This document shows positions 35,713 through 43,699 of a stretch of DNA of 64,000 bases, piece after piece. Each line of letters starts with the position of its first letter. Positions within the stretch are counted from its first letter, which is position 1. Position numbers and translations under genes: made by a program. The notes under the pieces are model-generated. The model was given only the letters and a program-made list of their open reading frames with translations, was not told where the DNA came from and made no database searches. Source of the DNA: Promethearchaeota archaeon (lineage in GTDB: Archaea; Asgardarchaeota; Lokiarchaeia; Sigyniarchaeales; SOKP01); NCBI GenBank assembly GCA_019058445.1, contig JAHPZA010000003.1:452919-516918 (forward strand), given 5' to 3'.

Positions 35713-36585
35713 CTAAATGAAGAAAGTGTCAAATTCTGGATTCTCTTTTTTTAAAGCAGGAATATGAAAAACTCCAAAAGAACCACATAAGTCACAGTTA
35801 ACGTCATTTCCATAACAACAAAAAGGTATTTCGAATCCCTCATCACCTAAGTATAAGGGAATCATAAAATTCTTTACACAACAATCTCTAGTATATTTTA
35901 AAGCATTTTGAGATAACATATATTCAAGTGCGAGCACTCTATTTGGTATAAAAGAGGGATATTTTTTCTTTAAAGCTATTGCTTTTTTAACTGCAGCATC
36001 GCGGTCTTCTAAAGAATTCCAAGCAAATTCGGAAGTATCATTTTTTTTTGGAACATAAAAAGATAACACTAAACTGTGCACTGGTGTATCTTTCATCAAT
36101 ATTTCCGCTAATTCTTCAATGGAGTCTTCGTTTTTTTTAGTAATTGCGCATTGGCACTGGATTTTATTAGGGAAATTATCAGGAAGGTTATTTAAAGTAT
36201 TAATGACTTTTTGAAATGAGCCTTTTCCTCGTATTTCATCATTGATATGTTCGGGACCGTCGATTGATACTGTCCAATGTATTTTTGGATCGATATCTGG
36301 AATGGGTAGCGTACCATTAGTAGCAATAACATTTAAAGGAAACAGTTTCACACCAAGTTCTAATACATCCTTTCGTAAAAGAGGTTCTCCTCCCATCCAG
36401 AGCATTCTTATTATCCCATACTTTCTTTTATATTTTTTAAGTTTTTTTATCATTGTTTCTGCGGGCATCTCATTCTTCTTAGTAGGTGTATTCGGATTGC
36501 CTTCTCGGTACACAAAACAGTGTTTACAGCTTAAATTACATCTGTTTGTTATATTTACCAAGGCCAATGGATATTTTTTATTCAT
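35713..36585 (-). CDS. Radical SAM protein, paralogue of 29164-30063
   Basis: CNLSCKHC and GGEP motifs; CCYGNDVNCDLC; long identical stretches with 29164-30063. Confidence 0.92.
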   Translation of the reverse strand: MNKKYPLALVNITNRCNLSCKHCFVYREGNPNTPTKKNEMPAETMIKKLKKYKRKYGIIRMLWMGGEPLLRKDVLELGVKLFPLNVIATNGTLPIPDIDPKIHWTVSIDGPEHINDEIRGKGSFQKVINTLNNLPDNFPNKIQCQCAITKKNEDSIEELAEILMKDTPVHSLVLSFYVPKKNDTSEFAWNSLEDRDAAVKKAIALKKKYPSFIPNRVLALEYMLSQNALKYTRDCCVKNFMIPLYLGDEGFEIPFCCYGNDVNCDLCGSFGVFHIPALKKENPEFDTFFI

Positions 36586-36818: not shown

Positions 36819-37322
36819 ATGGGATTATTAGCAGAAAATAGTGTTAAAGATTTGCCAACTCGATTTGAGACAGTACCGTATAGTACTTTTTTCAAACTCT
36901 GGTATGCTCTTCAAAAATCACTCCCTTCAGATAAAAAAGGAGAAATTCTCACGAGAATAGGACGAACAATCGGAAGAGAATTCGATGATGAAGGAATCGA
37001 GACAATTAACGATTTTTTAGCTAGGTTGGAGCAATTTTTGGAACAAGAATGGGCAATTACTGATAATGCAAAAGTAGAAGTTCTAAGAGATAGAGAAGGA
37101 AAAATTGTTAAATTAATAGCAAAACAAGACAGCTGTAAAATGTGTTTTGCCAATACTTATTATAGATTTCACGACAATGGAAGTCCATCTTGTATGTTTC
37201 CTCAAGTTGTTATGGGAATTTTATCAAAGGTGAAAAATAAGTTCGGGTTTAAGAATTTGAGATATGAGGGCGTTCAGAAAGGTGGAGTTGGAGTGTGCGC
37301 CATGACATGGAACGTTAAATAG
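36819..37322 (+). CDS. V4R/methanogen-output-domain-like protein
   Basis: ILTRIGRTIGRE helix followed by SCKMC...C...C Zn-ligand spacing typical of the V4R/H-NOX/Bet3 fold. Confidence 0.65.
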   Translation: MGLLAENSVKDLPTRFETVPYSTFFKLWYALQKSLPSDKKGEILTRIGRTIGREFDDEGIETINDFLARLEQFLEQEWAITDNAKVEVLRDREGKIVKLIAKQDSCKMCFANTYYRFHDNGSPSCMFPQVVMGILSKVKNKFGFKNLRYEGVQKGGVGVCAMTWNVK

Positions 37323-40129: not shown

Positions 40130-40253
40130 GTAATGGAAAATTTTAGCAAAAGGTTTCCGATTGTTTTGAATTTAAATAGAAATTTACTAAGTAATCTAAA
40201 GGAAGGAGAAATCACTGCTGAAGCTCAAATTACAAGAATTGAGAAAACTTTTA

Positions 40254-40592
40254 CTATATTATCATGCCACAGTGAGTACATTTATCCCCTGGAGGGAGTA
40301 GCTTGCTTCCGCAATATGGGCAAAATTTATAGACACTCCCAAGTTGAGAATCTGTTTGAGACACTGCTTGTTCGGAGGGATACATTGAGATTACTTCTTT
40401 AGGCTTCCTATAACGCAGATTTTTGTTTTGTTTACATATAGGGCATGTATCTCCACTTGAAACCAAGTAATACACAAGATAAATGATACCCCCGATAAAA
40501 GTGAACAGGAATAGCATAAAAAAAGCACGACGATTAAAAATTTTCATTGGAATAACGTGCTTTTTACAGGAATCACACCAGTTTTTTTTCAT
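40254..40592 (-). CDS. LITAF-like Zn-ribbon membrane protein with C-terminal double zinc ribbon
   Basis: WCDSC - hydrophobic stretch - CPIC, then FCPYCG...KCTHCG. Confidence 0.7.
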   Translation of the reverse strand: MKKNWCDSCKKHVIPMKIFNRRAFFMLFLFTFIGGIIYLVYYLVSSGDTCPICKQNKNLRYRKPKEVISMYPSEQAVSQTDSQLGSVYKFCPYCGSKLLPPGDKCTHCGMII

Positions 40593-40708
40593 CTTCCTAT
40601 GCTTACTATTAATTACAAATAGTTTTGTATTTTCAAATAAAGAAAGAGATAGTTATATTTTAAATTTTTTTTTAAAAGTAAAACAGTAAAATAGAAGACT
40701 AAATGTTC

Positions 40709-40733
40709 AACTAAACCTTTTTTAGGTTTAGTT
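40709..40733. promoter_or_regulatory. Perfect 10-bp inverted repeat (candidate operator)
   Basis: AACTAAACCT-TTTTT-AGGTTTAGTT. Confidence 0.6.
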
Positions 40734-40762
40734 TAAAATTAACTTTATCACACATTTTTAAT

Positions 40763-41057
40763 GGTTTTTTTATCATTTTCCGATACTCAAAATCTGCGGA
40801 TTATTGGATTCGATCATAATGTGATTTCCCATTCATTTAGCAAATCAAAAATTCGGTTTTCGATAATTCTAAATTTTTCTCTTGATCTTATGCGACATTA
40901 TGCACGTTTTGCAACATCATAAGATCTACTTTGTAGTAATGGAAAAAGCTAAAGTGACCTTTTATTGATTTTGTCGGAACCTGATAAAGGTTATTCGGCA
41001 AAATCGTTTTATCTAATATTCAGCATGTTCAGAAGTATCGAAAATGATCACCTTTTT
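40763..41057 (+). ncRNA. Candidate structured non-coding RNA (closing stem plus five hairpins)
   Basis: 40772-40809 pairs with 41011-41048. Internal hairpins at 40813-40825, 40835-40874, 40884-40926, 40928-40955 and 40967-41005. Non-Watson-Crick pairs in the stems are mostly G-U on the + strand; TATA-like TTTATCA about 25 nt upstream; T tract at 41053-41057. Confidence 0.5.
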
Positions 41058-41182
41058 CCCATAAATTAACGAAAAGTGACATAACATTTAAATACGAATA
41101 TAGTTAAGTATAAAATGGGAAACACAAAATTGTGAAAAAAAATTCACAATTAAAAAGTAAAAACCTTAGAAGTGAAAAAAAA

Positions 41183-41407
41183 ATGTGTAATAAATGCGAA
41201 TGTGATGGAATAGCTCAATGTTCTATAGTTGGATATCAACCTTTCGGAGCATGTTGTACACTTTGTGCCCATTGGGACGAAGAACATACCTGTCCGAATT
41301 ATGAAATGGTTGCGAAAAATGTTACAGTTTCGCAGGAAAACCTATTTAAAGTTGCGCCAAAGGAAAAAGCCAAAGCTATGACCGTTTCAGTTGAAAAATT
41401 TCCATAA
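41183..41407 (+). CDS. Small Cys-rich metal-binding protein, copy 1
   Basis: MCNKCECDGIAQCSIVGYQPFGACCTLCAHWDEEHTC; start moved to ATG 41183 by alignment with the paralogues. Confidence 0.85.
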   Translation: MCNKCECDGIAQCSIVGYQPFGACCTLCAHWDEEHTCPNYEMVAKNVTVSQENLFKVAPKEKAKAMTVSVEKFP

Positions 41408-41463: not shown

Positions 41464-41712
41464 GTGTGTAATTATTGCGAATGTGATAACATGGATAAAT
41501 GTTCTATAGTCGGGAATATTCCCTTAGGATTTTGTTGTCCTAAGTGTAAATTTTATTCAGGAGCGCATACATGCTTAAATTCGAAGATTAGAACTCAGGA
41601 GAAAATCAAAGCGATAACAAAAAAAATCGATGCTCTTCGTGAAGCTTTTGGTAAAAACGGCAATTCTTCCGAGGAGGAGGAAGAAATCGAAGAGCTTGAA
41701 AAGTATCCCTAA
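41464..41712 (+). CDS. Small Cys-rich metal-binding protein, copy 2
   Basis: MCNYCECDNMDKCSIVGNIPLGFCCPKCKFYSGAHTC; GTG start, GAGTGA RBS. Confidence 0.85.
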   Translation: MCNYCECDNMDKCSIVGNIPLGFCCPKCKFYSGAHTCLNSKIRTQEKIKAITKKIDALREAFGKNGNSSEEEEEIEELEKYP

Positions 41713-41752: not shown

Positions 41753-42040
41753 ATGTGTAATAATTGTAATTGCGAAAATTATGACAAATGTTCGATTGTT
41801 GGATATATGCCCATAGGGTTTTGTTGTTCTAAATGCTATCTCTATGATGAGCAACACACTTGTTTAAATACCAAGACCAAACGAAAATCTCCATTAGAGC
41901 AGGAAGATGAAGAAAAACGAGATGAATTAAAACCGATTAGTACTACAATAGAAAATGGAGTAGTAAAGGTGGTAGTTGGTAAGAAAGATAAAAAGAAGGA
42001 GATCTATATTGACCTTCAAAAACATTTAGATTCGCAATAG
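41753..42040 (+). CDS. Small Cys-rich metal-binding protein, copy 3
   Basis: MCNNCNCENYDKCSIVGYMPIGFCCSKCYLYDEQHTC; GGAGGT RBS. Confidence 0.88.
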   Translation: MCNNCNCENYDKCSIVGYMPIGFCCSKCYLYDEQHTCLNTKTKRKSPLEQEDEEKRDELKPISTTIENGVVKVVVGKKDKKKEIYIDLQKHLDSQ

Positions 42041-42322: not shown

Positions 42323-42820
42323 ATGAGTGTCATTAATTTTGAGTTTAGGAATGAAGTGTTGAAGCATAACGCCTCTCTGTCATATTGTTATCAATGTTCT
42401 ACTTGTTCTGGGGGGTGCCCTGTTGCATTGATAACAGAGGGGAAGTATAATCCCCGGAAGATTATTGAAGAGGCAATTTTAGGATTACAGGAAAAATTGG
42501 TAAATGAGCAAGATCCAAATCCTTGGTTATGTTCGACCTGTCAGAAATGTGTTGAGTTATGCCCTCAAAAGGTAGAATTGACAGAAATATTTACACTCAT
42601 CAAAAATCAGTGTTTTGAGAAGGGTAAATTTCCTGAGGCTTTTTCAGCACAAGGTCAAGCAGTATTAGAGTTTGGTATTGCTATTCCTTATTCTAAAGCG
42701 ATCATATCTAGGCGGGAGAAATTAGGATTACCTTCCATCAACACGGCTCCCGTTGAGGAGATACAAACGCTTTTAAAAGAAACCAAATTTGATAAAAACA
42801 TAACAAGGGGGGGTGATTAA
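42323..42820 (+). CDS. hdrC: Heterodisulfide reductase subunit C
   Basis: CYQCSTCSGGCP and WLCSTCQKCVELCP [4Fe-4S] motifs; precedes hdrB. Confidence 0.93.
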   Translation: MSVINFEFRNEVLKHNASLSYCYQCSTCSGGCPVALITEGKYNPRKIIEEAILGLQEKLVNEQDPNPWLCSTCQKCVELCPQKVELTEIFTLIKNQCFEKGKFPEAFSAQGQAVLEFGIAIPYSKAIISRREKLGLPSINTAPVEEIQTLLKETKFDKNITRGGD

Positions 42821-42823
42821 AGT

Positions 42824-43699
42824 ATGAGCTATGATTTATTTTTGGGCTGTGTGATTCCCGCAAGATTGCCTTACTTAGAGGCATCTGCGAGAAAGGTTTT
42901 CGAGAAACTTGGTATTATATTAAAAGATGTGGATGGATTTAGTTGTTGCCCCGATCCAACTGGAATTGAATTAATTGATCATAAGACTTGGCTTGCCTTA
43001 GGTGCAAGAAATTTAAGTTTATGCAATAATAATGGTGGTGTGATCTCCTTTTGTTCTGGTTGTGTAGAAACACTCAAGGGAGTGAATTACTTCATTAATA
43101 AAGATATCACCGTTAAAAAAGAAGTGAATAAATATCTCCAAAAGGTGGGAAAAGTTTATGAGGGTAATACAGCAGTTAAGCATTTTGCAGAGGTTCTCTA
43201 TGAAAATCTCGATAAAGTGAAAGAAACGGTAGAAAAACCATTAGAAGGATTTAAAGTGGCAGTTCATTATGGATGTCACTACTTACGACCTTCAGAGATT
43301 ATCGAATGGGATGATCCTTTCGAACCTGTTACTGTTGATGAGATTGTAGAAGCGTTGGGCGCAGAGTCGGTTGATTATGATTTAAAATTGGAGTGTTGTG
43401 GGAATCCATTAGATAAATCAGATAAAGATTTATCACTTCAAATGATTGACAATAAATTAGATGCGATTCAAAAAGCCGGGGCCAATTGCGTAGTAGTAGT
43501 GTGTCCGGCATGTTACCAGCAATATGAATTTAATCAACGTGAGCTCAATAAAAAGAATGGAACCGAATATAATTTACCGATTTTTTATCTTTCAGAATTA
43601 GTTGCATTAGCATTTGGGTTTAAACCCCAAGAATTAGGATTGAATTTTCATAGGGTCAGACCAAATGCGTTGTTTGAAAATGTAGGGTTTAAAGTTTAA
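42824..43699 (+). CDS. hdrB: Heterodisulfide reductase subunit B
   Basis: Two CCG domains: FLGC, SCCP, CSGC, HYGCH, CCG and CPAC motifs. Confidence 0.95.
   Translation: MSYDLFLGCVIPARLPYLEASARKVFEKLGIILKDVDGFSCCPDPTGIELIDHKTWLALGARNLSLCNNNGGVISFCSGCVETLKGVNYFINKDITVKKEVNKYLQKVGKVYEGNTAVKHFAEVLYENLDKVKETVEKPLEGFKVAVHYGCHYLRPSEIIEWDDPFEPVTVDEIVEALGAESVDYDLKLECCGNPLDKSDKDLSLQMIDNKLDAIQKAGANCVVVVCPACYQQYEFNQRELNKKNGTEYNLPIFYLSELVALAFGFKPQELGLNFHRVRPNALFENVGFKV

Follow-up and report, generated by a model that had tools for sequence, protein, structure and literature searches.

A conserved non-coding block upstream of a Cys-rich and hdr gene operon promoter in Lokiarchaeia, with a candidate role as cis-regulatory DNA

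A 295-nt non-coding element at positions 40763-41057 of the window analysed here, a 64,000-nt stretch of a Promethearchaeota genome (G000; 4.6 Mb, 92.6% complete), can be folded by hand into a closing helix that encloses five hairpins. An earlier note on this DNA read it as a new multibranch structured RNA of about 290 nt, or else as a regulatory leader. The locus thus raises the question of what is maintained there, a folded transcript or something else. To our knowledge almost nothing is known about transcriptional regulation in uncultured Asgard archaea, and a full-text search of the literature on Asgard or Lokiarchaeial transcription start sites, non-coding RNAs or promoters returned nothing relevant.

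Position of the block at the operon promoter

The block sits between a divergent upstream neighbour, a Zn-ribbon membrane gene on the minus strand (40254-40592), and three paralogous small Cys-rich genes, the first of which is encoded on the plus strand at 41183-41407 and the others at 41464-41712 and 41753-42040. The Cys-rich triplet is followed by hdrC at 42323, hdrB at 42824 and then hdrA/mvhD-like genes. Between the block and the first Cys-rich gene, the plus-strand interval 41070-41094 holds a promoter-proximal third copy of the motif that also forms the closing helix (CGAAAAGTGACA, 41070-41081) and a TATA box (TTTAAATA, 41087-41094). A palindrome, TTGTGAA-N6-TTCACAA, follows at 41130-41149, between the TATA box and the start codon. 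This order, CGAAAA..GATCA..TTTAAATA, then about 35 nt to the palindrome and about 33 nt from there to the ATG, recurs in dozens of Lokiarchaeial loci, and from its conservation and its consensus we infer that the CGAAAA..TTTAAATA arrangement is a promoter. Since the 3' end of the element is 30 nt upstream of the conserved TATA box, the element would lie upstream of the promoter and not in a leader, which makes the leader reading unlikely.

The position of the dyad at 41130-41149 is kept in about 40 loci across Lokiarchaeial clades (for example L066:2515, L049:1919 and L171:2951), with variants such as TTGTGAT..ATCACAA and TAGTGAG..TTCACAA that retain the dyad. Its half-sites resemble the bacterial Rex box. 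Rex itself was rejected as the regulator of the palindrome, as the Rex N-terminal domain (PF06971) was not found in the 92.6% complete genome. Among the surrounding genes, an 89-aa ORF at 40133-40402 on the plus strand overlaps the Zn-ribbon gene antisense, has no Pfam match and is probably spurious. Some 4 kb upstream of the block, a plus-strand gene at 36819-37322 encodes a 167-aa protein with a Cys-rich C-terminal half and no Pfam match, and adjoins a minus-strand radical-SAM gene (35713-36585).

The fold in a single genome

RNAfold applied to the plus strand of 40763-41057 returned a multibranch minimum free energy structure of 99 pairs at -69.4 kcal/mol. Dinucleotide shuffles averaged -52.5 +/- 4.2 kcal/mol and none of 200 was as stable (z = -4.03; -4.4 when rerun beside the orthologs), so that the energy advantage over shuffles that the earlier note had proposed as a check was indeed found in this genome. 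The arms that had been drawn by hand are also present: the closing helix (40772-40787 with 41034-41048), its continuation (40795-40809 with 41011-41025), the pairing of GATCTTATG at 40884 with CATAAGATC at 40918, and the stem at 40967-41005. The reverse complement folds at -69.2 kcal/mol with z = -4.26, 61 pairs are common to the folds of the two strands, and the number of G-U pairs is 9 on the plus and 5 on the minus strand. Because the reverse strand folds equally well, the argument that the wobble pairs work only on the plus strand does not tell the strands apart when the whole fold is considered.

For comparison, 36 windows of 295 nt, all below 30% GC, were drawn at random from this genome and each was set against 20 shuffles, which gives a rough estimate. 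Their mean z was -0.55 with a standard deviation of 1.6; three of the 36 (about 8%) had z of -3.5 or lower, and one reached -5.5. With so heavy a lower tail, a single-sequence z near -4 is weak evidence in this genome: the value for the hand-picked element is above shuffles yet not exceptional for its AT-rich DNA.

A TATA-like box (TTTAAAAT) is present upstream at 40732-40739 and a T5 run downstream at 41053-41057, but neither is conserved among the orthologs. A simple scan found no bacterial-type terminator. An Rfam cmscan with 4227 families at E <= 10 gave no match within 40763-41057, in agreement with the reported lack of tRNA, RNase P and SRP signatures. The element is also single-copy in the 4.6-Mb genome, where the next best match is 30 nt long with E = 0.004. 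A replication origin was considered and rejected; the three Cdc6_C matches lie on contigs C1, C7 and C9 and none on C3, the contig of this locus, and there is no clear skew turn at 493 kb.

Orthologs, selection and the fate of the fold

In 160 loci with a gene for the third Cys-rich paralog, searches with BLAST and nhmmer turned up six more copies of the block, in MAGs and metagenome contigs of related Promethearchaeota, so that with G000 there are seven loci. Across 135 genomes of the family the element was seen in two others besides G000, both of the same genus, and in each at the orthologous locus and nowhere else. At all seven loci the block is immediately followed by the CGAAAA..TTTAAATA promoter of the first Cys-rich gene. 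The upstream neighbour varies (the Zn-ribbon membrane gene, another membrane protein, a small GTPase-like or an aldo-keto-reductase-like gene) and is on the minus strand at every locus.

The copies come in two versions. A 5' module (40745-40903) was found by nhmmer and BLAST in all seven loci. The middle module (40904-41032) is that of type 1 in G000, L042 (= G007), L126 and L044 (= G002), and is replaced in the type-2 loci L124, L043 and L125 by a longer, non-homologous segment (about 230 nt versus about 130 nt) that resembles it on neither strand. Type-2 copies have only the 5' ~140 nt and the last ~26 nt in common with type 1, and in the 5' module L124 is 74-78% identical to type 1, with L043 and L125 matching only in part and at lower identity. 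Looked for elsewhere, in G000 and the remaining loci, the type-2 middle gave no match. An invertible segment was rejected, as the type-1 and type-2 middles have no reverse-complement homology.

Across the four-genome type-1 set the block is 65-77% identical (0.57-0.77 against G000). When G000 is compared with L044 in 60-nt windows, identity is 0.57-0.73 in the block, 0.65-0.90 in coding sequence and 0.22-0.35 in the adjacent spacers. Four-fold degenerate sites of the flanking genes are saturated, with identities of 0.31-0.35 against L042, L044, L126 and L124, and the good conservation of the block at such distances argues for purifying selection. By this comparison of sequences, the block is a real functional non-coding element under purifying selection. 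Conservation sets in sharply at about 40745, the interval 40671-40760 being only 0.22-0.30 identical to L044, and the Zn-ribbon gene has a conserved proximal region of its own at 40600-40670. Conserved stretches of the type-1 block include ATCGAAAATG and GATCATAAT. That no frame looks convincingly coding was borne out by the orthologs: no ORF is conserved, and each of the six frames has 2-13 stops in every one of them. A small ORF was likewise rejected, the longest open stretches lying in different frames and columns in different orthologs.

The type of a locus does not follow the phylogeny of the flanking genes, since the closest relative of G000 by genes is L043 (four-fold identity 0.54), yet L043 carries type 2. 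L042 and L124 (L042:1180-1760 and L124:760-1420) are about 95% identical over the stretch that begins with the right motif copy, takes in the promoter and extends into the genes, and about 80% identical in the 5' module, and their middles are unrelated. Such discordance in the aligned sequences suggests an old polymorphism or recombination among lineages, with chimeric assembly as a further conceivable source.

The multibranch fold was not kept in the orthologs. On the plus strand the six orthologs have z of -1.1, +0.25, -0.75, -1.4, -1.0 and -0.25, and are thus not more stable than shuffles; on the minus strand the values are -2.3, -2.7, -2.3, -1.0, -1.7 and +0.3. Where an ortholog has a substitution in a G000 pair, 29-32% of the pairs can still form, compared with 39-41% when partners are permuted. 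The 32-pair closing helix keeps 17-22 pairs, and the perfect 9-bp plus-strand hairpin of GATCTTATG and CATAAGATC (40884-40926) is specific to G000, with 5, 3 and 4 of its 9 pairs in orthologs. RNAalifold gave a covariation term of -0.06 and the structure conservation index (SCI) is 0.38 on both strands; for type 2 it is 0.30 and 0.37, with an unrelated consensus structure. The 5' module, the best-conserved part of the block, aligned over all seven loci, has per-sequence z near 0 and, on the plus strand, an RNAalifold energy of 0.00 and an SCI of 0; on the minus strand RNAalifold retains only a small TCGAAAA/TTTTCGA palindrome (40844-40864) that is paired in 5-7 of the 7 sequences. The proposed multibranch RNA therefore has no covariation to its credit, and its fold is a peculiarity of G000 alone.

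One inner hairpin stands apart. At 40967-41005 the four type-1 copies fold on the plus strand with -17.1, -9.4, -15.4 and -12.1 kcal/mol (z of -5.6, -2.8, -5.4 and -3.4), compared with -10.1, -1.8, -6.8 and -8.6 kcal/mol on the minus strand, and the SCI of this window is 0.72 on the plus and 0.05 on the minus strand. Among the substitutions are one double change from U-A to A-U and several changes from G-U to A-U. Only this one of the inner hairpins proposed earlier keeps a conserved, plus-strand-specific signal, and it does so in type-1 loci only; type-2 loci have no comparable hairpin (-1 to -3 kcal/mol), and the others are not conserved. With a plus-strand advantage of 3.5-8.6 kcal/mol in each of the four type-1 copies, and with G-U to A-U changes, the hairpin looks RNA-like and counts against reading the whole block as DNA sites.

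Ten loci of a sister Lokiarchaeial clade (L066, L140, L142, L149, L054, L063, L068, L143, L144 and L060) have their own conserved block of about 350 nt upstream of the same promoter, with a sharp upstream boundary. Only the promoter-proximal ~25 nt align with the G000 block. This sister block is unstructured (z of -0.6, -2.6, -0.4 and +0.7; SCI 0.35 and 0.33) and contains TTTTCGAAAA, TGATCA and ATCGAT motifs. A non-homologous block that nonetheless carries similar motifs is what would be expected from the turnover of cis-regulatory DNA. The sister-clade block also carries a 16-bp palindrome, GATTCTGATCAGAATC, and in L142 it has an internal 32-nt tandem duplication.

Motifs, candidate functions and known systems

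Both arms of the closing helix are copies of one motif, ATCGAAAATGAT, in inverted orientation, and this motif is found again next to the TATA box. Written as AGTATCG(G)AAAATGAT, it occupies 40772-40787 of the minus strand and 41034-41048 of the plus strand. The left copy, which forms the 5' arm of the helix, reads AGTATCGGAAAATGAT and its core is kept in 6 of the 7 loci; in L125 an A-tract replaces its T-tract, and the other arm has no compensating change. The right copy and 3' arm, AGTATCGAAAATGATCA (41034-41050, plus strand), keeps ATCGAAA(A/T)TG in 6 of the 7. A palindromic pair of the motif, ATCAAAAA..TTTTCGAT, lies at 40844-40864, and a GATCA site (40812-40816) within TCGATCATAATG (40810-40821) is invariant in all seven sequences. 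TCGAAAA is enriched about 20-fold and TGATCA about 12-fold in the seven blocks, and ATCGAAAA-like sites number 4-10 per locus in both orientations, compared with 2.7 per kb genome-wide. No regulon is obvious: ATCGAAAATGA has nine exact matches in the genome, and the 20-mer palindrome pattern near the start codon has two, at C3:494048 and C2:170943.

GATC occurs upstream of the promoter roughly 4 times per 480 nt (38 loci, several clades), versus 1.2 times in low-GC windows of the genome; four or more are found in 3% of the low-GC windows of G000, and genome-wide GATC is at expectation (ratio 1.03). The enrichment in the 38 loci, about four-fold and mostly as TGATCA, could reflect a binding motif or a methylation-related feature.

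The plus strand also carries T runs. A T7 run at 40765-40771 marks the start of the block and is T6 or T7 in 5 of the 7 loci; T5 to T7 runs lie at 40765-40771, 40874-40878 and 41053-41057 in G000, and there are more in the orthologs. Oligo-T runs of this length are archaeal termination signals, and their presence would disfavour a plus-strand transcript through the 5' module.

Our leading reading, held tentatively, is that the block is a cis-regulatory upstream DNA region of the Cys-rich-triplet/hdr-flx operon. The block of about 310 nt (40745-41057) would be the upstream part of the operon control region, abutting the core promoter, and would act in cis as DNA, as an array of putative transcription-factor sites. 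The array would be built from the short motifs ATCGAAAA(TGAT) and TGATCA in both orientations, with one copy directly upstream of the TATA box; the closing helix and several of the inner hairpins would be by-products of inverted motif copies. Proteins that bind these motifs may thereby regulate the operon. What points this way is the linkage to one promoter, a repeated motif vocabulary that is found also in the non-homologous blocks, constraint on sequence together with no constraint on structure, and the T runs. Several observations count against it: a stretch of about 300 nt, conserved fairly evenly throughout, is longer than is usual for known archaeal operators or upstream activating regions, ATCGAAAATGA with its nine matches is not obviously a member of a genome-wide regulon, and the spacing between 5' module and promoter differs by about 90 nt between the types.

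The same even conservation over about 300 nt would suit the main alternative, a mostly unstructured plus-strand non-coding transcript that contains the hairpin at 40967-41005. This transcript might begin inside or after the 5' module and stop before the main promoter, and it might act as RNA or by transcriptional interference with the downstream promoter. We regard it as possible but less probable. The strand-specific stability of the hairpin in all four type-1 copies, its contrasting SCI on the two strands and its one double-sided and several G-U-mediated changes are consistent with such an RNA, as are the TATA-like box upstream and the T5 run downstream in G000, but these last two signals are not conserved, and the hairpin is absent from type-2 loci, is the only conserved helix, and is seen in four sequences that represent only two or three independent lineages. 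The T5-T7 runs in the 5' module also speak against it. The two readings are not mutually exclusive, and a cis-acting DNA region is compatible with an upstream transcript.

For an RNA that functions through the complete fold, closing helix and five inner hairpins together, we see very little room. The G000 fold is real and beats shuffles (z -4.0), and six of the seven loci retain the inverted motif at the ends; against this, about 8% of random AT-rich G000 windows have a similar z, the minus strand is equally stable, the orthologs are no better than shuffles on the plus strand, substituted pairs are retained at or below the chance rate, and SCI is 0.38 overall and 0 in the 5' module. In addition, close relatives have swapped the middle for a non-homologous, differently folding sequence, and there is no Rfam match. 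The comparative tests have largely refuted this reading. About as improbable is an ancient, now immobile MITE-like insertion, bounded by inverted repeats of some 15 nt, that became fixed in front of the operon and was co-opted afterwards. The inverted 15-16-nt motif copies at both ends (40772-40787 and 41034-41048) are terminal inverted repeats of the kind expected, and T runs flank both ends in G000, L042 and L124. These runs are missing in L126, L044, L043 and L125 and are not adjacent to the repeats in all loci, so there is no consistent target-site duplication; the same motif is found again inside the block and beside the TATA box, and purifying selection acts on the interior. The MITE alternative offered in the earlier note fails on copy number, since the element is present once in the genome, only at this locus among the 135 family genomes, and the genomes searched contained no dispersed copies flanked by target-site duplications. 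Unlikely, but less so than these two, is a control region shared by two divergent promoters, in which the left motif copy and an A7 run (CGGAAAATG-ATAAAAAAA on the minus strand) would be a leftward BRE/TATA-like promoter mirroring that of the operon. In its favour, the motif copies are arranged symmetrically at the two edges and the upstream neighbours are all encoded on the minus strand; on the left, conservation ends at 40745-40756, some 20-25 nt past the A/T run, where a transcription start would be expected. The arrangement, proposed from inspection of the sequence, sits poorly with the unconserved left spacer (40671-40760), with the separate conserved proximal region of the Zn-ribbon gene (40600-40670) and with upstream genes that vary between loci.

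On present evidence, the block is a moderately interesting regulatory region and not a new class of element. The proposed structured RNA is unsupported, so a false lead has been removed, and what takes its place is a stretch of about 300 nt of non-coding DNA, in front of an energy-metabolism operon of uncultured Asgard archaea, that is clearly under strong purifying selection. The block offers a defined motif vocabulary (ATCGAAAA, TGATCA) and two alternative modules, and, should regulators or transcripts be identified, it would be a first entry point to the control of an Hdr/Flx-type redox complex in these archaea. A broader and more doubtful proposal is that Lokiarchaeia keep, under selection, unusually long (300-400 nt) control modules before the Cys-rich/hdr-flx operon, and that recombination between lineages exchanges at least two interchangeable versions of them, which are not homologous. 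A module of this length could be enhancer-like DNA or an upstream transcript with a conserved hairpin in type 1. If long swapped modules prove true, they would be closer to eukaryote-style regulation upstream of promoters than to the compact operators of other archaea.

Compared with known systems, the block has nothing in common with Rfam structured RNAs beyond being non-coding. With MITEs it shares a length of about 290 nt, ends formed by inverted repeats of some 15 nt, AT-richness, lack of coding sequence and folding on both strands; it differs from them in being single-copy, at the same locus in all genomes, under purifying selection and without a consistent target-site duplication. The E. 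coli fimS element is an invertible promoter switch, and the block is like it in being a segment of roughly 270 nt with short flanking inverted repeats directly upstream of an operon; unlike fimS, no ortholog has the segment inverted, and the conserved TATA box lies outside it. Archaeal upstream activating and operator regions include multi-site regions bound by Lrp/Ptr2-type regulators upstream of the BRE/TATA, usually spanning a few tens of nt. We know of no operator consensus that the motif of the block matches. The block differs from these regions in its length, about 300-400 nt versus a few tens, and in having two alternative versions; like them, it lies directly upstream of the BRE/TATA, has motifs repeated in both orientations with one abutting the TATA box, and is linked to one promoter.
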